From positions 53,940 to 117,939 of IMG/VR virus record IMGVR_UViG_3300020474_002475: a stretch of DNA of 64,000 nt, one strand, 5' to 3'. The first letter of the stretch is position 1; every line of letters starts with the position of its first letter. The notes beneath the pieces were generated by a model. It did no database searches. It was not told the DNA's origin and saw only the letters and a program-made list of their open reading frames with translations. This DNA is from a virus. Of the stretch, positions 4,418 to 15,656 are shown in pieces. Made by a program: the position numbers and the translations under genes.

Positions 4418-4796
4418 TGTAGATACTGACAAACTAAAACAATTGTTGTATGCAATGATAGAAACATTAGATGGAGAAACATCTGAATCTAGTGAAAAAG
4501 TAGAAGAAACAAAAGATGTAAACTCTAATGCTCAACAACCAAAGAATTCTCGTAGAAAAAGATACGGTGGAGAAGAAAATTTATTTTTAAGCATGCCAGA
4601 AAAAGACATGCATAAGGCAGATGTTGAAATAGATAAAAAACTAGCACCTAAACAGTTAACGGCAAGAAACAGAGTTTCTACAGAAATGGATGTCCGATGT
4701 AGAATTTGCGGCAAAGAGCAGAGGGTAAGCAAATCTTTGATAACTGATGGTGCCCATAGATATAAATGCAATGATTGTTCTAGGAGTTCAGGCTAA
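4410..4796 (+). CDS. hypothetical protein with C-terminal C4 zinc finger
   Basis: CRICG...YKCNDC. Confidence 0.7.
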   Translation: MGNVDTDKLKQLLYAMIETLDGETSESSEKVEETKDVNSNAQQPKNSRRKRYGGEENLFLSMPEKDMHKADVEIDKKLAPKQLTARNRVSTEMDVRCRICGKEQRVSKSLITDGAHRYKCNDCSRSSG

Positions 4797-6262
4797 TGAT
4801 ATTGTGTGATCCTGCAGCAGAACGTGCTGTTCTTAGCACCATTATGCAAAATGGTGACAAATCTTACTTGGAAATTTCTGATATAGTAAATGAATCTACG
4901 TTTACTGTTGATAGCAACCAATATTTGTATCAGTGTTTAAAGCACATTTGCGAACAAAGCTCATGCAGCAATATAGATATTGCTTCTGTATTTTCTGCGG
5001 CTCAAGAACTTGGATTATCTCATTTATTAAACACAAAGTCGGAAGCCCAGCATATTAAAGCAATCAAAGATTTTCCTGTAGAAAAAAGCAATCTTAGGAA
5101 ATTTGGTGCAAAAATTAAAAAATTAGAGATTGCCAGAGATCTACATAAACAGCTTAAAGATACACAAGACAAGATTTTAGACATTAACGGAAATGAAAGC
5201 ATAACTTCTATTTTGGGTATAGCAGAAGATTCGATATTTGATTTTTCTTCTAAGTTAAATGATTCAGAATCTGGACCACAAACAATCGGTGAGAATATTG
5301 AAGACTATGTAAAGTATCTAGAAGAAAATCCCATCGAACAAGTTGGTATTTCTACAGGCTTTCCTGTATATGATAAGTCTATTGGTGGAGGTTTGAGAAA
5401 GAGTACCGTAAATGTTATAGCTGCTAGACCTAAAACTGGTAAAACATTGTTGTCTGACAATATGGGATATTATATAGCAAACACCTTGAATATTCCTGTT
5501 TTAAATATGGACACGGAAATGACTAGAGAGGATCATGTTCATAGATTATTGGCTATGTCAACAGAGATAGAAATGAATCAAATAGAGACAGGTAGGTTCG
5601 CAGAATCTCCTAATCTTAAAAAGAAGATATATGAAAGCGCTAATAAAATTTCTAAGATACCATACTACCATAAAAGCATTGCAGGTAAACCATTCGAAGA
5701 ACAATTAGCGGTAATGAGAAGATGGATAGTTAAAGAAGTAGGCTTAAAACCAGATGGTACAGCTAAAGACTGTGTTGTATTTTACGATTACTTAAAATTA
5801 ATGGATACTCAAGGTATGAGTCAAGATCTAAAAGAGTATCAAGTTTTAGGTTTTATGATGACGCAATTACATAATTTTTCTACTAAATATGGCATTCCTG
5901 TTGTCGCTTTTGTTCAGTTAAATAGAGATGGCATTACAAAAGAGTCGACAGATACGGCAAGCGGTTCTGATAGAATTATCTGGCTATGTAGCAATTTTAC
6001 AATATTTAAAAAGAAAACAGATGAAGAAATTGCAGAAGACGGACCAGACAATGGCAATAGAAAACTAATACCAATTATTAGTCGTCATGGCGGAGGATTA
6101 GACGACAATGATTATATAAACTGTCATATGAAAGGCTGGTGTGCTAAAATTGCTGAAGGTCAAACTAGATTAGAATTAACTTCAGGTGGTAGTAATAACT
6201 TTAAAGATGATGGGTTCATAGTAAATGAAAATGATGAAAATGAAAAAATTGAATTCGTATGA
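4796..6262 (+). CDS. dnaB: replicative DnaB-family (SF4) helicase
   Basis: N-terminal AERAVL, GISTGF, Walker A ARPKTGKT, VFYDYLKLM, QLNR, IISRHG. Confidence 0.95.
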   Translation: MILCDPAAERAVLSTIMQNGDKSYLEISDIVNESTFTVDSNQYLYQCLKHICEQSSCSNIDIASVFSAAQELGLSHLLNTKSEAQHIKAIKDFPVEKSNLRKFGAKIKKLEIARDLHKQLKDTQDKILDINGNESITSILGIAEDSIFDFSSKLNDSESGPQTIGENIEDYVKYLEENPIEQVGISTGFPVYDKSIGGGLRKSTVNVIAARPKTGKTLLSDNMGYYIANTLNIPVLNMDTEMTREDHVHRLLAMSTEIEMNQIETGRFAESPNLKKKIYESANKISKIPYYHKSIAGKPFEEQLAVMRRWIVKEVGLKPDGTAKDCVVFYDYLKLMDTQGMSQDLKEYQVLGFMMTQLHNFSTKYGIPVVAFVQLNRDGITKESTDTASGSDRIIWLCSNFTIFKKKTDEEIAEDGPDNGNRKLIPIISRHGGGLDDNDYINCHMKGWCAKIAEGQTRLELTSGGSNNFKDDGFIVNENDENEKIEFV

Positions 6263-7379
6263 CCAAGCCAAGTTAAAGGCTATGTCAGACAGCTTGTGTG
6301 ATAATATAGAAGAACTATTAGATGTCTTAGATGTTACAGACTACAGGATATCTGATAAAATGGTTATTTGTAGTTGTCCAATACACGGTGGAGATAATCC
6401 GTCTGCATTTAATTTATACCACACTGGAGATAGCTATAGGGGCAATTGGAAATGCAGGACTCACAATTGCGAAGAAATATTTAAACCTTCTATACTGGGT
6501 TTTATTAGAGGATGTCTGTCTAATAAAAAGTATGATTGGTCTTCGAAAGAAGGTCAGGTTTGTACATTTAAAGAAACAATAACTTTTGCTGAACGCTTTT
6601 TAGGCAATAAACTTGATGACATAAAAATATCTAGCAAACAAAAAGAAAAAACTAGCTTTGTTAATGTTGTTAAATATATCAATACAAAAAACGAAGAAGA
6701 AACAAATAAAATACCTAGAAGCACAATTGTCTCGTCTCTAGATATACCATCCAAATACTTTATAGAAAGAGGTTTTTCTAAAGACATTTTACTTAAATAT
6801 GACGTAGGAGACTGCAATACAGCAAGCAAACCTATGTTTGGCAGGGCAGTGGTGCCAGTATATGATCAAGATTATAAATATATGGTTGGATGTACTGGAA
6901 GATCTATAGACAATAAATGTAATAAATGTTCATGTTATCATAAAAGTTCGGAATGTCCACCAGAAGATAAGCAATATCTGCATTCTAAATGGAGACATAA
7001 TTTTGGTTTTAAAACACAAAACCACTTATATAACTACTGGTTTGCAAAAGACCATATAAAGAAAACGGGTAAGGTTATATTAGTAGAAAGTCCCGGTAAT
7101 GTATGGAGACTAGAAGAGGCTGGTATACACAATTCTGTCGCCTTATTTGGTGCTTCATTAGCAGATATACAAAAAATGATTTTAGATATATCTGGAGCAA
7201 TGACTATATATACTATTATGGACAATGATGACGCCGGTAAAAAAGCAGCGGAAAATATATATAAAAAATGTGAAAGAATATACAATGTTCATAACATAGA
7301 GCTTGAACAGGCAGATGTAGCTAGTATGAATGTTGATCAAGTTAAGGACTTTATAAAACCAAGGATAGACCATGACTAA
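6240..7379 (+). CDS. dnaG: DnaG-type DNA primase (CHC2 Zn finger + TOPRIM)
   Basis: CSCPIHGGDNPSA...WKCRTHNC; GRAVVPV; TOPRIM LVESPGNVWRL and MDNDDAG; start could be 6225-6240. Confidence 0.9.
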   Translation: MKKLNSYDQAKLKAMSDSLCDNIEELLDVLDVTDYRISDKMVICSCPIHGGDNPSAFNLYHTGDSYRGNWKCRTHNCEEIFKPSILGFIRGCLSNKKYDWSSKEGQVCTFKETITFAERFLGNKLDDIKISSKQKEKTSFVNVVKYINTKNEEETNKIPRSTIVSSLDIPSKYFIERGFSKDILLKYDVGDCNTASKPMFGRAVVPVYDQDYKYMVGCTGRSIDNKCNKCSCYHKSSECPPEDKQYLHSKWRHNFGFKTQNHLYNYWFAKDHIKKTGKVILVESPGNVWRLEEAGIHNSVALFGASLADIQKMILDISGAMTIYTIMDNDDAGKKAAENIYKKCERIYNVHNIELEQADVASMNVDQVKDFIKPRIDHD

Positions 7380-8097
7380 AATTATAGCATTTTCTGGAAA
7401 AAAACAGTCAGGTAAAAATACCTGTGCAAATTTTATATATTCTACATATATGGCAAATCTTAAAATTAGTAAAAAAATACACATCAATGATCTTGGAGAA
7501 ATAGAAGTATCTGATCTCTTTGGTAAAAAAGAATATTCGGGAATATTTAATCCAGAAAGATATGATTCTACAGATTTTATTTTACAACAAGCACTAACAA
7601 AAGTTAATCCTCATATTAAACTTTATAGCTTTGCTGAACCTCTTAAAACGGATATCTGTATTAATATATTGGGACTAAGCTATGAACAATGTTATGGGTC
7701 GGATAATGATAAAAATTCAATAACAGATTTACAATGGGAAAACAAAAACTTAACAGCTAGAGATGTTATGCAAATTGTTGGTACAGACATTTTACGAAAA
7801 ATGAAACCAGATGTTTGGACTAGCGCACTAATAAGAAAAATCAAAAGCGATAACCCCAATCTAGCCATTATTACAGATTGTAGATTTCCTAACGAAGTTG
7901 ATTGCATACAAGACAATGAAGGTGTTGTTATTCGTTTAACAAGAAGTACTAGTGATTCTCAACATAGCAGTGAAACTATCCTAGATAGGAACAATTATGC
8001 GTGGGACAATTTTGACTATGTACTCGATAATAACAATTTGGATATATATAATCAGTCTTTGTCAATAGAAAAAATACTAAAAGAGGTGTTATCATAA
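7372..8097 (+). CDS. deoxynucleoside monophosphate kinase (T4 gp1-like)
   Basis: IIAFSGKKQSGKNT, SFAEPLK, TARDVMQIVGTD, IITDCRFPNE, HSSE. Confidence 0.88.
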   Translation: MTKIIAFSGKKQSGKNTCANFIYSTYMANLKISKKIHINDLGEIEVSDLFGKKEYSGIFNPERYDSTDFILQQALTKVNPHIKLYSFAEPLKTDICINILGLSYEQCYGSDNDKNSITDLQWENKNLTARDVMQIVGTDILRKMKPDVWTSALIRKIKSDNPNLAIITDCRFPNEVDCIQDNEGVVIRLTRSTSDSQHSSETILDRNNYAWDNFDYVLDNNNLDIYNQSLSIEKILKEVLS

Positions 8098-9143
8098 TTA
8101 TTACATATTTTCGTAGTTCTAGCTATAACACACACAATATGTGTGAACAACAATATCTATTTGATTATGTTCTTGGCTATAGATCTCCGTCTAATAAAAA
8201 AGCAGACAAAGGTACAATTGTACACAAAATATTGGAAATATTAGCTTTTGTTAAATTTACCATACAAAAAAATGAACAAACATTTGAAGATGATATTTTG
8301 GGTAAAATCAATGTTTATAATTATGATTTAGACGATATTATTGATAGAGTCTATAATTTTTACACATCGCACTTTACACATCATGAATGGAAAGATGTGG
8401 ACCATAGAGATTGTAAAAAATGGAGTTATAAAGCGATAGAATATGCAGGAGGTATGTTTGATCCTAGAAATAGAACCATCTTATATCCAGAACAAAGATT
8501 TGATATAACAATTGAAAAGCCTTGGGCAGAGTATGAATATGAATTGCCTAGCGGAGAAAAACTAAAAGGACACCTATCTATTAAGGGTACTATCGATTTA
8601 ATTACCAAACCAAGTGACAATACATTAGAAATCGTCGACTGGAAAACAGGGAGAAGACTTGACTGGGCTACAGGACAAGAAAAAACTCAAGAAAAACTAG
8701 AAACAGATCCGCAGCTTATGATATACTATTATGCTGCTCAAAAACTCTATCCTGAAATAGATCATTGTATCGTAACGATATACTTCATTAATGATGGTGG
8801 TCCTTTTAGTATGACATTCGACAAATCGCATTTACAAAAAACGGAAGACTTACTAAGAGAAAAATTTTATAAAATTAAACAATCCAATAAACCTCGACTA
8901 TCTAAAACTTGGAAATGTAGAAAATTGTGTCATTATGGTAAAAATACTTTTCAAGGACATGATAGTATATTGCCGATGCTTGAATATAGAGAAGGTCAAG
9001 TATGTAATCCGGGATATAATATGACGATGTGCGAACAAGTAGCTCATGACATAAAAACTAAAGGTTTAAAAAATGTTGTTGACGAATACACTGTTCCAGG
9101 GTATAATGTAGGACATTACCAAGCTCCTGGAAGTACAGAATGA
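8094..9143 (+). CDS. PD-(D/E)XK exonuclease (RecB/Cas4-like); probable ATA start
   Basis: RSSSYNTHNMCEQQYLFDYVLG, GTIVHKILE, GTIDLI, IVDWKTG, QLMIY, CRKLC. The conserved N-terminal motif lies upstream of the first ATG (8139); SD AGAGGTG precedes ATA 8094. Confidence 0.85.
   Translation: MIITYFRSSSYNTHNMCEQQYLFDYVLGYRSPSNKKADKGTIVHKILEILAFVKFTIQKNEQTFEDDILGKINVYNYDLDDIIDRVYNFYTSHFTHHEWKDVDHRDCKKWSYKAIEYAGGMFDPRNRTILYPEQRFDITIEKPWAEYEYELPSGEKLKGHLSIKGTIDLITKPSDNTLEIVDWKTGRRLDWATGQEKTQEKLETDPQLMIYYYAAQKLYPEIDHCIVTIYFINDGGPFSMTFDKSHLQKTEDLLREKFYKIKQSNKPRLSKTWKCRKLCHYGKNTFQGHDSILPMLEYREGQVCNPGYNMTMCEQVAHDIKTKGLKNVVDEYTVPGYNVGHYQAPGSTE
9079..9107 (+). promoter_or_regulatory. sigma70-like promoter for the polymerase operon
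   Basis: TTGACG-N17-TATAAT, 32 nt upstream of the dnaE-N start. Confidence 0.7.
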
Positions 9144-11014
9144 AAAATTATATTCCATTACATGTTCACAGTCATTATTCTCTATTAGATGGCTTATCTA
9201 AGCCCGAACAAATAGCAAATAGATGCAATAAGATTGGAGTAAATAGCTGTGCTATTACAGACCATGGCTCTATCTCCGGTGCAGTACAAATGTATTCAGC
9301 ACTTAAAGCTAAAAATATAAAGCCTATATTAGGCTGTGAACTGTATTTGGCGTTTAACGACTCCTGTATAAAAACAAAAGAGAATATAAAATTAACTCAC
9401 TTTCTTGTTTTGGCCAAGAACTTAGAAGGTTGGAAAAATTTAATAAAAATAGTTTCTACGTCCAACAGCGAAGAAAACTACTACAGAAAACCTAGACTTT
9501 CTATAGATAAACTTAAAGAACTAGTTACTGGCAAAAATTTAATTAGTTTTTGTGGTCACATGGGATCTTATTTGCCAGATTTAATAGAACAGCATCCAGA
9601 TAATTATAAAAAACATTGCCTAAATTTTATAGACGAGATGAAAGATATTTTTGGTAAAGAAAATTTCTTTTTAGAATCTCAGCTTATGGACAAAGAGTAT
9701 ATGCCTAAGCAGATAGAGCTTTCTGATATAATGAGAGACCTATCGTCTTTATCAAATACCAAAGTCTTAGCGACCCCCGATGCTCATTACGCAGAGCAAG
9801 AGGATGCTATAGATCAAAGAATTCTATTATGCAATAATATTAAAACAACCCTCACTAATATTAACAAAAAAATTATTAATGAAGAAAGTGTTCCTTTTGA
9901 TTGTTTCTTTAAGTCTGATAAGTATTATATTTTATCTCCAGAAGAGATGAATGAATTACATAAAGAAGAAGAAATAGAAAACACACAACTGGTAGATAGT
10001 ATGTGTGAAGAGTATGATATTTTAAATAAGCCCTTATTGCCTCCATTTAGATGTCCTAATGGTCAAAATCCAGATGAGTATTTAAGACAATTATGTAGAA
10101 ATGGATGGAAAGAAAAAATAGCAAATAATATACCAAAAGAAAAACATGAAATGTATACTGATAGAATTAAAAAAGAATTAGAAGTTTTACAAGGTGCTGA
10201 CTTGTCTAGTTACTTTTTGATAGTGTCTGATATAGTAAATCATGTCAGGTCCAATGGCTGGCTTCCTGGTCCAGGCAGAGGCTCGGCTGCTGGGTGCTTG
10301 GTGTCATATTTAATTGGTATTACATCTATTGATCCTATACAATACGGATTGATTTTTGAAAGATTTTATAATTCTGGCAGAAATACAGAAGGTAGAGTTT
10401 CTATGCCAGATATCGATGTAGACGTACCTATTAATAAAAGAGAAAACATCATTTCATATATTCGACAAAGATATGGTAGTGACAAAGTTTCTCAGATGAT
10501 TACTTTTAATACCATGAAAGGTCGTGGCGCATTAAAAGAAGTTCTGCGTGTTTATGGCAATATCAGTTTTGACGAAATGAATCAAATTACTAAATTTATT
10601 CCTGATGAGGCCAAAATAGCAGATGAACTACAAGAAATGAAAGCAGATCATGGGGAAGCATCAATTATTAGATGGGCATTAGAAAACAATGCAGATAAAT
10701 TAAAAGATTGGTGCCACATTTCACAAGATGGCAAAAACAGATTGTCAGGACCACTTGCCAAAAGGTTTGAGCAGGCTATTAGATTAGAGGGCACTAAATC
10801 AAACCAGTCTAAGCATGCCGCCGGTGTAGTTATTAGTAGTCACAATTTGAGTGATATATGTCCGATGATTTACGATACTAAAAACAAAACCACTATAGCG
10901 GGTATGGAGATGCAAGATTTAGAATCCATAGGTATAATCAAATTTGATATTTTGGGAGTAGCTATGCTAGATAAAGTAATGTCCATATCCGATATTTTAT
11001 TAAATGGAGAATAA
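9140..11014 (+). CDS. dnaE: DNA polymerase III alpha, N-terminal subunit (PHP + palm + thumb)
   Basis: LHVHSHYSLLDG, ITDHG, GPGRGSAAG, FERF, MPDIDVD, HAAGVVI, KFDILG, then a stop shortly after. Confidence 0.95.
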   Translation: MKNYIPLHVHSHYSLLDGLSKPEQIANRCNKIGVNSCAITDHGSISGAVQMYSALKAKNIKPILGCELYLAFNDSCIKTKENIKLTHFLVLAKNLEGWKNLIKIVSTSNSEENYYRKPRLSIDKLKELVTGKNLISFCGHMGSYLPDLIEQHPDNYKKHCLNFIDEMKDIFGKENFFLESQLMDKEYMPKQIELSDIMRDLSSLSNTKVLATPDAHYAEQEDAIDQRILLCNNIKTTLTNINKKIINEESVPFDCFFKSDKYYILSPEEMNELHKEEEIENTQLVDSMCEEYDILNKPLLPPFRCPNGQNPDEYLRQLCRNGWKEKIANNIPKEKHEMYTDRIKKELEVLQGADLSSYFLIVSDIVNHVRSNGWLPGPGRGSAAGCLVSYLIGITSIDPIQYGLIFERFYNSGRNTEGRVSMPDIDVDVPINKRENIISYIRQRYGSDKVSQMITFNTMKGRGALKEVLRVYGNISFDEMNQITKFIPDEAKIADELQEMKADHGEASIIRWALENNADKLKDWCHISQDGKNRLSGPLAKRFEQAIRLEGTKSNQSKHAAGVVISSHNLSDICPMIYDTKNKTTIAGMEMQDLESIGIIKFDILGVAMLDKVMSISDILLNGE

Positions 11015-11018
11015 TAAA

Positions 11019-11198
11019 ATGCAAAAAGAATTTAAAGAAGTAAATGTCAATGAAACTTTTAGTGTAAACGGTAAACAATATGTTAAAGTTAACCCAGTTA
11101 AAGTTAGCTGTTGCCGTAGTGTAAACTGTCACGCTGTTAACAGTCCAAAGGATAGGACGTTTTTACAGCCCAACTCGAAGGTAGAGGTGCAAGATTAA
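11019..11198 (+). CDS. small beta-rich Cys-containing protein inside the split-dnaE locus
   Basis: GGAGA SD 8 nt before ATG 11019 (alternative start 11004); SCCRSVNC motif. Confidence 0.65.
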   Translation: MQKEFKEVNVNETFSVNGKQYVKVNPVKVSCCRSVNCHAVNSPKDRTFLQPNSKVEVQD

Positions 11199-11895
11199 TA
11201 GGAATAAGATTTGTGTATTTGACTTGGAAACTGACGGCGTCAATCCAGAAGTTTGCAGTCCTGTACAAATTGCTGCGGTTATTGTGGATCCTTTGAAATT
11301 AGAAATCGTACCAGACTCCGAGTTTAATATTACTCTTAAGCCGGAGTCCCTGGAACAAAATCCTGAATATTGCTATGATGATTCTGATGTTTTAGATTTT
11401 CATGCAAAAGTTAGAGGGGTAAGCAAGGCTAAGATTTTAGAATCTTGGAAGAAATACCAAAAACAGGATCAAGCATGGAAGATGCTTACTAGCTATTTAC
11501 AAATGTATCATACTAGATCAACTAAAAAGAATTGTTTTAGTGCTCCGATTGCTGCTGGTTATAATATTAATAAATTTGATTTACCAATTATCAACAGACT
11601 TAGCAGTAAATATAAAACAGTAAACAAAGAAGGAAAGACCGATTTGTTTTATCCCAGAGATGTTTTAGATATAATGAATGTAATATTTTATTGGTTCGAA
11701 AACAATAATGAACTAAAAAGTTATACATTAGATAATCTGAGAGACTATTTAGGCTTATCAAAAGAAAATGCTCATGACGCACTAAAAGATGTGCAAGATA
11801 CTGCTCAAATAATGATAAGGTTTATGAAACTGTTTAGAAGTATGTCGCCAAAAATTAAATTTAAGGATTCATTTAATAGTACTGCAAATGTCTGA
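11194..11895 (+). CDS. dnaQ: DEDDh 3'-5' exonuclease (DnaQ/epsilon-like); probable ATT start
   Basis: ExoI ICVFDLETDG, ExoII AGYNINKFD, ExoIII HDALKDV. ExoI begins upstream of the TTG called at 11224. Confidence 0.88.
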   Translation: MNRNKICVFDLETDGVNPEVCSPVQIAAVIVDPLKLEIVPDSEFNITLKPESLEQNPEYCYDDSDVLDFHAKVRGVSKAKILESWKKYQKQDQAWKMLTSYLQMYHTRSTKKNCFSAPIAAGYNINKFDLPIINRLSSKYKTVNKEGKTDLFYPRDVLDIMNVIFYWFENNNELKSYTLDNLRDYLGLSKENAHDALKDVQDTAQIMIRFMKLFRSMSPKIKFKDSFNSTANV

Positions 11896-13513
11896 ATATT
11901 ACACTTTTGATTGTGGTTGTAAATTTAAAATACTTGGGAATAGTAAAGAATTTCCTAGTATAGATTTTAAACCGACTTTAGATAATTTAAATTTAGAATG
12001 TTCTAAAACTTGGGACTTAATATCTTCTGGCAATACCAAAGGATGTTTTCAATTAGAGTCTAGACTTGGTCAAACCATGTCAAAAAAACTTAAACCCAGA
12101 AGTATTGAACATTTGTCTGGATTAATCAGTATTCTTCGTCCAGGATGTCTTGAAGCAGTTAGGGATGGTAAAACTGTATCTAATCATTATATAGACAAGA
12201 AGAATGATCAAGAAACTGTAGATTATTATCATCCTGTTTTAAAAGAATGTCTTGAGAAAAGCTATGGCGAAATGATCTATCAAGAACAAGCTATGGAAAT
12301 TGCAAGAGTAGTTTCTGGATTTAATCTGGAAGAAGCAGACATATTAAGAAAAGCAATTGGTAAGAAAAAAGCGGATTTGATGTCTCAGGTAAAGACTTCA
12401 TTTATGGCAGGTGCAACCAAAATGGGTTTAGTAAATAAAGAAACCGCTGAAGAAATTTTTGGTTGGATTGAAAAGAGTCAAAGATATTCTTTTAATAAAA
12501 GCCATGCCGTTAGCTACGCTATGAACGCATATCTCTCTGCATACTCTAAGGCTCACTTCCCCAGAGTATTCTTTGCTTCATATCTTAAATTCGCTAAAGA
12601 TAAAATAGACCCTCAACAAGAAATAAAAGAGCTGGTACGTAATGCTAACGAAATGGATATAACCATCCATACTCCCGATATTAGAGAGCTAAATGAACTC
12701 TTTGCAATTAGACAAGGTAAAATATATTTTGGACTAACCGATATAAAAGGTTTAGGTCAATCTGTATTTAAAAAATTATTAAAGATTGTTGAAAATGATA
12801 ATATAGATATCGGCAAATTATCATGGTATCAAATGCTATATAAGATATTATGTAATATAAATAGCACTGCTACCAAAGCCCTTATTGCATCAGGAGCATT
12901 AGATTATTTCAAAAAAACTCGCACAGAAATGCTATTTGAGTATGATATATTTACATCTCTTACTAAGAAGGAAATCGAAAAAGCAGGAGATATTATAGAA
13001 AACGGAGCAGTTCCTTTAATCAGCATATTAACAGAATTATTAACTAAAAGAGTTAATATAAAAAGACAAGCTATAATAAATAATCTTATAGAAACTATCA
13101 AGCACCCCCCTTATTCTCTTATTGATAAAATAGAATGGCTATCAGATTCAGAAAATACTTTGTTAGGAACATCGATAACTTGCTGTAAATTAGACTCATA
13201 TAATATAGATATGACTAATATGAACTGTAAAGACTTCAAGAAAACATATAAGGTAGAAGATATCATATTGGCTGCCGAAGTGGTTGGGGTTAATGTAACC
13301 AAAACTAAAAATGGTAAAAACCCAGGTGCTGAAATGGCATTTGTTACAGGAGAAGATCAATACGGGATGTTAGATTCAATTATTATGTTTCCAGAAACAT
13401 GGGAAAAATACAGACCTCACGTTTTTGATGGTAATGTTTTAATATTCACGGGCAAAAAGTCAAAAGCAAAAGACAGTCTAATAGTAGAAAAATGCTTTGT
13501 TCCTAAGTCTTGA
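11888..13513 (+). CDS. dnaE: DNA polymerase III alpha, C-terminal subunit (fingers + HhH + OB fold)
   Basis: GCFQLES, SILRPG, IYQEQAM, ADILRKAIGKKK, YSFNKSHAVSY, FGLTDIKGLG, GALD, OB fold EMAFVTGED. Confidence 0.95.
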   Translation: MSEYYTFDCGCKFKILGNSKEFPSIDFKPTLDNLNLECSKTWDLISSGNTKGCFQLESRLGQTMSKKLKPRSIEHLSGLISILRPGCLEAVRDGKTVSNHYIDKKNDQETVDYYHPVLKECLEKSYGEMIYQEQAMEIARVVSGFNLEEADILRKAIGKKKADLMSQVKTSFMAGATKMGLVNKETAEEIFGWIEKSQRYSFNKSHAVSYAMNAYLSAYSKAHFPRVFFASYLKFAKDKIDPQQEIKELVRNANEMDITIHTPDIRELNELFAIRQGKIYFGLTDIKGLGQSVFKKLLKIVENDNIDIGKLSWYQMLYKILCNINSTATKALIASGALDYFKKTRTEMLFEYDIFTSLTKKEIEKAGDIIENGAVPLISILTELLTKRVNIKRQAIINNLIETIKHPPYSLIDKIEWLSDSENTLLGTSITCCKLDSYNIDMTNMNCKDFKKTYKVEDIILAAEVVGVNVTKTKNGKNPGAEMAFVTGEDQYGMLDSIIMFPETWEKYRPHVFDGNVLIFTGKKSKAKDSLIVEKCFVPKS

Positions 13514-13537
13514 CTTTTGCTGAGTACGACATATAAT
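13510..13537 (+). promoter_or_regulatory. sigma70-like promoter for ssb
   Basis: TTGACT-N16-TATAAT followed by an AAGGAG SD before ATG 13586. Confidence 0.65.
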
Positions 13538-13585
13538 AAACTAGTGTTTGGTTTTGGATTTTTAATTTTAAATAAGGAGTTTTCA

Positions 13586-13957
13586 ATGAATCTTGTAATT
13601 TTAAGAGGTAATTTAGCTAGAGACCCAGAAGTTCGCAGAGTGAATACTGGCGGAAAAGAAACCGCTGTAGTGAATTTCACCGTAGCTACTTCTCGTGAAT
13701 ACACGAAGTCTAATGGCGAGAAGGATAAGGTTACTTCTTTTATTAATTGTGAAGCATGGGATACCGGTGCTGAAATCATCGGTGAATCTTTTTCTAAGGG
13801 AGATCTAGTAATGGTAGAAGGATCTTTACGAAATGATTCCTGGGAAAAAGATGGAGTTAAACACAATAGCTTCAAGGTTAGAGTAAATAATTTCTCTAAG
13901 CTTACCAAGCTTTCTAGACATAAGGCAGCTAGCAAAGAAGAGCCTGTTGCATTCTAA
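13586..13957 (+). CDS. ssb: single-stranded DNA-binding protein
   Basis: MNLVILRGNLARDPE...FINCEAWD...KGDLVMVEGSL; short tail EEPVAF; strong SD. Confidence 0.95.
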   Translation: MNLVILRGNLARDPEVRRVNTGGKETAVVNFTVATSREYTKSNGEKDKVTSFINCEAWDTGAEIIGESFSKGDLVMVEGSLRNDSWEKDGVKHNSFKVRVNNFSKLTKLSRHKAASKEEPVAF

Positions 13958-13976: not shown

Positions 13977-14007
13977 CAAAGGGGCTTCACGGCCCCTTTG
14001 TATTTTT
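13977..14007 (+). terminator. rho-independent terminator after ssb
   Basis: CAAAGGGGC-TTCACG-GCCCCTTTG perfect 9-bp stem followed by TATTTTT. Confidence 0.85.
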
Positions 14008-14009
14008 AT

Positions 14010-15656
14010 ATGAACAAGTTAAAAGTATTAATGTGCTCGGAAGCTAGCTTTTTAAATTCTGGCTTTTCTATATACGCCAAAGAAATATTATCTCGGCTAT
14101 ACGCGACAGGTAAATATGAAATAGCCGAATTTGCTAGTTACGCTGTTGTTAACGACCCTAAAGACAAAGACATACCTTGGTCAATATATGCAAATGCTGT
14201 TAATAATGCAGATCCTAGACATGCCGAATATACTTCTAGAACAGATAATATGTTTGGTAGGTGGCGTTTTGATAAAACCGTTGTAGATTTTAAACCCGAT
14301 GTTGTAATAGATGTTAGGGATTACTGGATGTCTGCTTATCAGGAGCAATCACCAGCTAGAAAATTGTTTCATTGGATATTAATGCCTACAGTAGATTCTG
14401 CTCCACAACAACCGCATTGGATAGATACTTTCTTAAATGCAGATGCGATTTTTACGTATTCGGATTGGGGGGCTGATGTACTAAAAAATCAATCAGGAGG
14501 AAAAATAAATTATATAGACACGGCATCTCCTGGTGTTGATTTGTCTGTTTTTAAAATTAAAGACAAACAAGAGTGCAGAAAAGCAATCGGAGTACCGTCT
14601 GATGCAATAGTAATAGGTTCGGTCATGAGGAATCAAAAAAGAAAACTAATACCAGAATTATTTGTTTCTTTTAAAAAGCTGTTAGATAAATATAAAAAGT
14701 CTAATAATCCACTTGGAGAAAAACTTTTCCTTTATTTGCATACTAGCTTTCCTGATGCTGGGTGGGATATTCCAGAATCAATGAAAGAAAACGGAATTTT
14801 AAATAAAGTTCTGTTTACACAAATTTGTAGAAAATGCAACCATGTTTCATGTGGAGTCTTTCGTGGTCCACAAACGGTGTGTCCTAAATGCTTTACTAGG
14901 AATCAGACATTTCCAAATGTTACTGCCGGTGTAACATCTGAGCAATTATCTACTATCTATAATACTTTTGATATGTATGTGCAGTATGCTATATGTGAAG
15001 GCTTTGGCATGCCGCAAGTAGAAGCTGGAGCTTGTGGTATACCTATAGCTACAGTTGATTATAGTGCGATGTGTGACGTGATAAATAAATTAAACGCATA
15101 TCCTGTAGAAATTAAAACATATTTTAAAGAATTAGAAACTAGAGCCATTAGGGTTTATCCAAACAATGACAGCTTGATATCCACTATAGATAAGTTTATT
15201 AACATGCCTGAACCTATACAATACAAAAAACGTCTTAATACTAGAAAATTAACAGAAAAACATTATAATTGGGACAATATAGCTAAAAAGTGGGAAAAAT
15301 ATTTGGACAGTTTAAATGATAGTGGTTATAGGGCCGATTGGAGTCATCACAAACGAATTAATAAGATAGCTAATGCGGAAGCAAATAGTAATGTGGATGC
15401 ATTAATATCTGTATGTCGTGATAATTTGTTAGATATAAACGCTGCGTCATCTAGTAAAATGTTATCATATTTAAATGACGCTGATTACGGTTTTCAACTT
15501 AATGGCTTAAGCACAAACCCTTTTGATATGAATAAGGTTGCTGAACAAATGAATATATATGTTAGCAATAATAATCAGTTGTGTGATGCTTTAGATAATA
15601 AATTAGCCCTAACAGAAGACTTTATACAATACGCAAAACTAAAAGCAAATAATTAA
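14010..15656 (+). CDS. GT4-family (GT-B) glycosyltransferase with zinc-ribbon insert
   Basis: RNQKRK, EGFGMPQVEAGACG (EX7E motif), YNWDNIAKKW; CRKC...CPKC insertion. Confidence 0.88.
   Translation: MNKLKVLMCSEASFLNSGFSIYAKEILSRLYATGKYEIAEFASYAVVNDPKDKDIPWSIYANAVNNADPRHAEYTSRTDNMFGRWRFDKTVVDFKPDVVIDVRDYWMSAYQEQSPARKLFHWILMPTVDSAPQQPHWIDTFLNADAIFTYSDWGADVLKNQSGGKINYIDTASPGVDLSVFKIKDKQECRKAIGVPSDAIVIGSVMRNQKRKLIPELFVSFKKLLDKYKKSNNPLGEKLFLYLHTSFPDAGWDIPESMKENGILNKVLFTQICRKCNHVSCGVFRGPQTVCPKCFTRNQTFPNVTAGVTSEQLSTIYNTFDMYVQYAICEGFGMPQVEAGACGIPIATVDYSAMCDVINKLNAYPVEIKTYFKELETRAIRVYPNNDSLISTIDKFINMPEPIQYKKRLNTRKLTEKHYNWDNIAKKWEKYLDSLNDSGYRADWSHHKRINKIANAEANSNVDALISVCRDNLLDINAASSSKMLSYLNDADYGFQLNGLSTNPFDMNKVAEQMNIYVSNNNQLCDALDNKLALTEDFIQYAKLKANN

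Follow-up and report, generated by a model that had tools for sequence, protein, structure and literature searches.

Bacterial genes such as infC and pcnB begin with AUU in place of AUG, which is a known but rare kind of start. AUU starts function in bacteria and are limited by initiation factor 3 (IF3), which discriminates against AUU (PMC5499595). In Escherichia coli reporters, the output of an AUU start was reported to be 6-8 times below that of AUG or GUG (PMC3592434), and the AUU and AUA starts described by ribosome profiling in Staphylococcus aureus all lie behind extended Shine-Dalgarno (SD) sequences and reach ~10% of the AUG level (PMC13009471). For prokaryotes at large, weaker start codons have been reported to accompany stronger SDs, with GUG and UUG covered, and one switch to AUU was counted among 61,358 ancestral AUG starts in cellular genomes (Belinky et al., 2017; PMC5622118). 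Our search of the literature on AUU and AUA starts in general found none on phage replication nucleases; the exonuclease family itself was not searched. Here, we describe a DnaQ-like exonuclease gene that lacks a canonical start codon and is probably translated from ATT. It is located in the right-hand 64 kb of the 117,939-base virus record IMGVR_UViG_3300020474_002475, a stretch of 64,000 nucleotides that we refer to as the window (source, marine metagenomes; GC content, 34%). Several public metagenomes contain this phage.

The exonuclease gene was called at 11224-11895 on the + strand, and the start proposed here extends it to 11194-11895 (233 amino acids plus stop). Its frame is closed upstream by an in-frame TAG (11182-11184), after which the codons read AGG TGC AAG ATT AAT AGG AAT AAG ATT TGT GTA TTT GAC TTG. 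Neither ATG nor GTG nor TTG occurs between this TAG and GAC 11221, the codon of the first catalytic Asp, and the first canonical start of the frame is the TTG at 11224, directly 3' of GAC (both codons together occupy 11221-11226). Given that the catalytic Asp precedes this TTG, a TTG-started protein would be devoid of the residue. At the junction with the preceding small open reading frame (ORF; 11019-11198), an SD sequence, AGAGGTG (11183-11189, + strand), is followed by CAAG and then by ATT 11194, i.e. at a spacing of four nucleotides. The SD doubles as the Glu-Val end of the small ORF, and the TAA stop codon of the latter (11196-11198) begins with the last T of the ATT, producing an ATTAA overlap. 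The initial annotation had pointed out that the ExoI motif straddles the called TTG with the first catalytic Asp upstream of it, that no canonical start is found back to TAG 11182, and that AGAGGTG lies 4 nucleotides before an ATT overlapping the upstream stop; the letters and the codon reading bear out all three statements. Its conclusion that the gene requires a non-AUG start, with ATT 11194 as the best candidate, agrees with the comparison with relatives presented below.

Judged by Pfam and its motif residues, the product is predicted to be a DEDDh 3'-5' exonuclease (DnaQ-like, RNase_T family). The protein matches RNase_T (PF00929) with 47.4 bits (cut-off 24; E 3.9e-12) over profile positions 2-163 of 164, as well as phrog_192, 'DNA polymerase exonuclease subunit' (4.5e-23). 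The Pfam match starts, at profile position 2, with the Val two residues before the catalytic Asp; when the protein is read from TTG 11224, the match begins at profile position 6 and drops from 47.4 to 39.8 bits. Counted from ATT 11194, residues D10, E12, D129, H194, and D199 are present in the window exonuclease and invariant in 21 aligned homologues. We take D10/E12 to be the ExoI Asp-x-Glu, D129 the ExoII Asp, and H194/D199 the ExoIII His-x4-Asp.

Comparison with related loci shows where the canonical start has gone. Scans of viral and metagenome contigs provided 58 loci, 55 of which contain the ExoI motif. An ATG is located 9-11 codons before the catalytic Asp in 45 loci, corresponding to 29 sequences that are distinct by start context, and most of these starts read ATG ATT/ATC/ATA AAY TAT AAY AAA ATT TGT or ATG GCT/CCT AAT ... 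CAA AAA ATT TGT. Alignment of the orthologous codons, a check suggested with the initial annotation, places AAG 11191-11193 of the window at the position of the ATG in relatives of the ATG ATT/ATC/ATA AAY type and ATT 11194-11196 at their second codon, which identifies AAG 11191 as the site of the lost ATG. Likewise, Ile-Asn-Arg-Asn-Lys, read from the ATT onwards, aligns with the Met-Ile-Asn-Tyr-Asn-Lys of the relatives, and the ATT is found nine codons before the catalytic Asp, compared with 9-11 for the start of the 29 distinct ATG-bearing relatives. The ATG is absent from ten loci (L001-L004 and L031-L036), which together with the window comprise six distinct sequences (the window, L031, L001, L002, L035, and L003), and the arrangement of SD, four nucleotides, and ATT is kept in all six. 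L031, whose protein is 94% identical to that of the window, reads TAG AGG TGC AAG ATT and is likewise without a canonical start before the Asp. The L001, L002, L035, and L003 types (83-84% identity) read TGG AGG TGT CAG ATT; TGG in place of the TAG and CAG in place of the AAG are common to L001-L004 and L032-L036. Since CAG differs from AUG at two positions, the old start position is unusable in these types. The TTG at 11224 is not conserved either, being TTA in the five other distinct members of the clade.

Just four codons (AGG, TGC, AAG, and ATT) are open before the conserved N-terminus in the window and in L031, and of these only ATT is an initiation-competent single-base neighbour of AUG. 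Its SD matches the consensus over six contiguous nucleotides (GAGGTG), a class reached at 5 of the 99 first-ATG sites in the genome; matches of at least four nucleotides are found at 43 of these 99 sites and at 14% of 5000 random positions. Duplex energies, computed against a generic anti-SD sequence, amount to -9.5 kcal/mol in the window and -13.2 kcal/mol in L001, L002, L003, and L035. Over the six ATT sequences, the energies thus range from -9.5 to -13.2 kcal/mol, whereas the 29 ATG sequences average -4.8 and three of them reach -10. The AGAGGTG heptamer itself is present in eight copies in the window (4.55 expected; 7 of 100 shuffles reach eight) and is an ordinary strong SD rather than a special shared motif. 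When the whole genome was scanned for strong SD hexamers with ATH (H being A, C, or T) or CTG behind them, the result was uninformative, as 142 of 191 hexamers had no nearby start and mostly fell into Gly-rich coding repeats. No conserved RNA structure was found around the exonuclease start: the energy of the consensus fold is -6.4 kcal/mol, to which covariation contributes -0.05, the z-score of the single sequence is -1.18, and 21 of 200 shuffles folded as well.

The gene is under strong purifying selection. Ratios of non-synonymous to synonymous substitution rates (dN/dS) are 0.005-0.017 among L001, L002, L035, and L003, with dS of 0.19-1.0, and 0.03-0.06 in comparisons involving the window or L031 (clade range, 0.005-0.057). 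Between the window and L031, 105 synonymous and 20 non-synonymous differences were counted, and synonymous sites are near saturation. Low dN/dS at such divergence indicates that the ATG-less state has lasted long under strong constraint, which rules out a dead gene as well as a recent error. With regard to the initial concern that assembly might conceal an ATG or an indel, none is seen in independent contigs, which are assembled sequences and not raw reads: X3 and X4, from DNA runs of different studies, match the window at 10765-11398 and 10765-11403, respectively, with 0 differences and 0 gaps, and X19, from an RNA library, shows no difference in 11142-11225 and a G>A change at 11226, turning 11224-11226 into TTA. 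Given these three contigs and the same state in L031, L001-L004, and L032-L036, sequencing or assembly error was ruled out. Reassignment of the stop codon was rejected as well, because read-through of TAG 11182 reaches just TAA 11122, over a stretch devoid of ATG, GTG, and TTG. X19 is a single 835-base metatranscriptome contig over 10700-11423 with 26 differences that covers the end of the upstream gene for the N-terminal half of DnaE (dnaE-N), the small ORF, and the exonuclease start; it is compatible with a co-transcript from a related strain, and DNA carry-over is possible.

The small ORF (ATG 11019, stop TAA 11196-11198, + strand) encodes a conserved mini-protein of 59 amino acids with an invariant Cys-Cys pair; F14, C31, C32, and V55 are invariant in the alignment. 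It matches phrog_2183 (unknown function; 8.1e-06), and no Pfam family was matched. Homologues are found directly upstream of the exonuclease gene in 27 of 28 distinct loci, the window included, and across these loci the stop codon of the small ORF lies -4 to +17 nucleotides from the exonuclease start. This proximity suggests that tight coupling of the two cistrons is ancestral and that the ATTAA overlap of the window is one version of it. The mini-protein may be a small subunit of a polymerase-exonuclease assembly; complex prediction with the exonuclease returned a score of 0.00, too low to pass the mark, which is uninformative on binding either way.

We consider it likely, on comparative grounds, that the exonuclease is produced by SD-driven AUU initiation at ATT 11194, coupled to termination of the small ORF. 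The ancestral ATG would have been lost to what is now AAG 11191, and translation would begin at the next codon, ATT 11194, with the initiator tRNA reading a weak near-cognate start. The strong SD (GAGGTG, 4 nucleotides upstream) could hold the 30S subunit over the ATT, and ribosomes ending the small ORF at the overlapping TAA would be delivered to it by translational coupling; in E. coli reporters, re-initiation was reported to account for about half of second-cistron initiation at such junctions (PMC3592434). The predicted product is a DEDDh exonuclease of full length with a complete set of catalytic residues. It has one residue fewer than its counterparts in the relatives, and its output is probably below the rate of an ATG start, with the stronger SD partly compensating. 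The PD-(D/E)XK nuclease two genes upstream appears to start in the same way, at ATA 8094.

Several observations weigh against this interpretation. The ATT and the small-ORF TAA share a T, the third base of the former and the first of the latter, so that the invariance of the ATT in 6/6 sequences is confounded. The ATG-less state arose once, in one clade, and because all ATT sequences belong to it, the SD comparison for the exonuclease amounts to a single evolutionary event. A stem in the predicted consensus fold pairs part of the SD, with covariation support absent. In L001-L004 and L032-L036, the frame is open upstream and contains an in-frame ATG ~24 codons before the ATT, which could serve as the start in these lineages; this ATG has no SD, is located inside the small ORF, and is shut off by the TAG in the window and in L031. 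Finally, the case for ATT 11194 is built on comparison throughout. As a related observation, the open frame of L001-L004 and L032-L036 runs through the end of the small ORF, where gene finders are likely to predict a protein of 264 amino acids.

Initiation could also take place at another in-frame near-cognate codon, chiefly ATT 11209, in which case the protein would start at the first strand of the ExoI motif. ATT 11209 is preceded by a 4-nucleotide SD (AGGA, 11200-11203) at a spacing of five and retains the catalytic Asp. However, L031 has ATC and several relatives have ATA at this position, its SD is absent from L001-type sequences, and it is positioned four codons before the Asp, compared with 9-11 for the start of all ATG-bearing relatives. 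In addition, the four codons between the two ATTs, which are free of overlap with the small ORF, evolve as coding sequence: of the changes seen within the two subclades, 4/4 leave the amino acid unaltered (L001 group: AAT/AAC, CAA/CAG, and AAA/AAG; window versus L031: AAG/AAA). Synonymous-only change indicates that these codons are translated and favours 11194 over 11209, which makes the downstream start unlikely in our view.

A second explanation takes up the +1 frameshift fusion to the small ORF that the initial annotation had named as an alternative. In this case, a programmed +1 shift of the prfB type at GAT TAA T would fuse the small ORF to the exonuclease. The geometry resembles that of the gene for release factor 2 (RF2), with an internal SD (GAGGTG), a 3-nucleotide spacer (CAA), GAT as the P-site codon, and a stop; the exonuclease lies in the +1 frame with respect to the small ORF, and GAT TAA is kept in all six ATG-less sequences. 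RF2 sites, however, are described as keeping CUU_U or UUU_U for re-pairing and a poorly terminating UGA-C stop (PMC5009743), whereas tRNA-Asp on GAU cannot re-pair on AUU and the stop is TAA T in five of the six sequences and TAA C in the other (L003). Moreover, the two cistrons are separate in all 29 distinct ATG-bearing relatives, with the small-ORF stop -4 to +17 nucleotides from the ATG, and a search for longer proteins with the small-ORF domain came back empty, which counts as weak evidence. The nuclease junction at ATA 8094 has the same layout of SD and ATH codon and would need a -1 or +2 shift relative to the kinase gene before it. Since initiation covers both junctions with one mechanism and frameshifting would need two, initiation is preferred, and a fusion appears highly improbable. 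That the exonuclease is silent, or is started at TTG 11224 as a decayed, non-catalytic protein without its first Asp, is hardly credible: although this TTG is the sole canonical start in the frame and follows a weak 3-nucleotide SD match, it reads TTA in X19 and in each of the five remaining distinct sequences of the clade, the residues before it are conserved, and the gene retains all five DEDDh residues at dN/dS of 0.005-0.06 over saturating synonymous divergence.

Initiation at a near-cognate codon also accounts for the neighbouring PD-(D/E)XK nuclease, which was called at 8139-9143 and for which we propose 8094-9143 (349 amino acids, + strand), with ATA 8094 replacing ATG 8139. The ATA overlaps the stop codon of the dNMP kinase gene (TAA 8095-8097), and no canonical start exists in the nuclease frame back to TAA 8049-8051. 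Every relative conserves the 15 residues before ATG 8139 and shows many synonymous changes in them, among which are switches of codon family for Ser and for Arg. Once the protein is read from ATA, the PDDEXK_1 match begins at profile position 5 instead of 13 and scores 66.5 instead of 62.3 bits. Seventeen distinct sequences have ATG (7), ATA (7), or ATT (3) at the position homologous to this ATA, in line with the near-cognate start that the initial annotation had assigned to this second nuclease beside dnaE-N. On a protein tree from which the first columns were left out, the state changes between ATG and non-ATG at least four times, and at least three of these changes are forced by well-supported branches. 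SD energies follow the start codon without overlap, from -5.4 to -12.8 kcal/mol in the 10 non-ATG sequences and from -0.1 to -4.0 in the 7 ATG sequences. The occurrence of ATG, ATA, and ATT at one homologous codon, together with the shift in SD strength, indicates that translation in this phage group can begin at ATA and ATT and that these codons are swapped with ATG; for the window, the sequence comparisons place the nuclease start at ATA 8094. The AGAGGTG context that the initial annotation saw as common to both nucleases is indeed present a second time, at 8082-8088 (+ strand), five nucleotides before the ATA and with a duplex energy of -9.7 kcal/mol, but the heptamer is not enriched and is an ordinary SD. 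We also observed that L055 (ATT behind AAGGA) and L054/L076 (ATG behind TAAGG) encode near-identical nuclease proteins (branch lengths 0-0.005) with different upstream sequences, which suggests that the start region is exchanged or fast-evolving, independent of the gene body.

A gene census was carried out on G000 against five whole related records. It was confined to the 70 genes for which the distant relatives G003, G004, and G005 have orthologues, after a first census by upstream alignment had proven too noisy (conserved DNA and wrong-frame matches); the remaining 31 of 101 putative genes had no orthologues in G003-G005 and fell outside. Sixteen of the 70 genes were flagged. For 14 of these, inspection pointed to low-complexity repeats, to truncated ends of stretches, or to an ATG located at the start of the alignment or beside it. 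Among the 70 genes compared, inspection thus left only the two nucleases with conserved coding sequence that extends 5' of all canonical starts.

The initial annotation had suggested that both near-cognate starts possibly serve a shared, IF3-sensitive control of proofreading and mutation rate. In the boldest form of this hypothesis, both nucleases would be held on AUU and AUA starts so that the amounts made of the two enzymes, and through them the strength of proofreading and the mutation rate, track host IF3 and growth state. If true, this would constitute a phage-encoded translational rheostat for replication fidelity, and the switching among ATG, ATA, and ATT with concomitant SD change would be its lineage-specific retuning. 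We consider such a rheostat very unlikely. Among 17 distinct loci with both genes, 7 have ATG at both, 5 (one clade) have non-ATG codons at both, and 5 combine a non-ATG nuclease with an ATG exonuclease. Given these last five loci, the start states of the two genes are not kept together, and shared control is not favoured by the relatives. Repeated exchange of start codons with compensation by the SD resembles drift about a constant, low level of expression more than it does a conserved joint switch. Some regulatory role is conceivable. We also considered a phage-encoded IF3 or a private initiator tRNA and rejected both: in the virus record, estimated to be 83% complete, no match to the IF3_C domain was found, and tRNA genes are absent from the window and from all 117,939 bases.

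Both nucleases belong to a replication module that comprises a DnaB-like helicase (4796-6262), a Toprim primase (6225-7379), the dNMP kinase (7372-8097), the PD-(D/E)XK nuclease, dnaE-N (9140-11014; PHP and pol III alpha domains), the small ORF, the exonuclease, and the gene for the C-terminal half of DnaE (dnaE-C, 11888-13513; finger and HhH domains). DnaE is thus split into two genes (9140-13513) between the palm/pol III alpha domain and the finger domain, and the gap between the halves holds the mini-protein and exonuclease genes, an order common to the related contigs examined. Exonuclease activity and an association with the split DnaE polymerase are predicted, with the position between dnaE-N and dnaE-C as the support at hand. 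Megablast of 9000-13600 against isolated phages gave no match, and the nearest isolates by protein are Bacteroides phages, at 29% identity. Further downstream, a glycosyltransferase-like gene is listed from TTG 13998 (13998-14012), and alignments with distant relatives begin at about ATG 14010, four codons later, which is probably its true start.

The main value of these observations lies in the correction of annotation and in a clean example from nature in which start codon and SD compensate for each other. Gene finders restricted to ATG, GTG, and TTG cut the exonuclease at TTG, with loss of the first catalytic Asp, and remove 15 conserved residues from the nuclease, so that automatic annotation makes both enzymes appear truncated or inactive. 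The nuclease provides a clear example of how start codon and ribosome-binding site balance each other, the SD being stronger wherever its ATG is missing, and the findings offer a testable handle on the way in which the proofreading subunit is balanced against the split DnaE polymerase in these phages.

Among described systems, the thrS-infC junction of E. coli is similar in that an AUU is located just after the preceding stop and behind an SD, with the weak start limiting output (PMC3592434, PMC5499595). However, the infC AUU serves as the sensor through which IF3 regulates its own synthesis and is conserved across bacteria, whereas the phage AUU is not known to take part in any feedback and would derive from loss of an ATG in one clade; in addition, the preceding stop is 3 nucleotides before the AUU in infC and overlaps the start (ATTAA) in the phage. 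Shared with prfB are a downstream frame at +1 and an SD-like element that is separated by three bases from the last codon ahead of an in-frame stop, but the phage site has GAU and not CUU, a strong UAA-U/C stop, and no fused form in the relatives. Parallels are also found in S. aureus, where cvfC1 (AUU) and ccpN, citZ, and infC (AUA) are reported to combine a non-canonical start with a long, strong SD at short spacing, both conserved (PMC13009471). The starts of these genes were mapped by ribosome profiling and reporters, whereas those of the phage are known from comparison; moreover, the phage genes are replication nucleases whose start switches repeatedly between ATG and ATA/ATT among lineages. 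The pairing of a weak start codon with a stronger SD in the phage nucleases also agrees with the compensation reported by Belinky et al., 2017 (PMC5622118), although the phage nuclease shows at least four switches between ATG and non-ATG in 17 sequences, over a much deeper divergence. The mechanism as such is already known from infC, pcnB, and the AUU/AUA genes of S. aureus, and the phage pattern is unusual in frequency, not in kind. Specific to this case are the loss of an ATG with the second codon apparently taking over within the overlap with an upstream stop, and the repeated exchange of ATG, ATA, and ATT with matching SD in a neighbouring gene.

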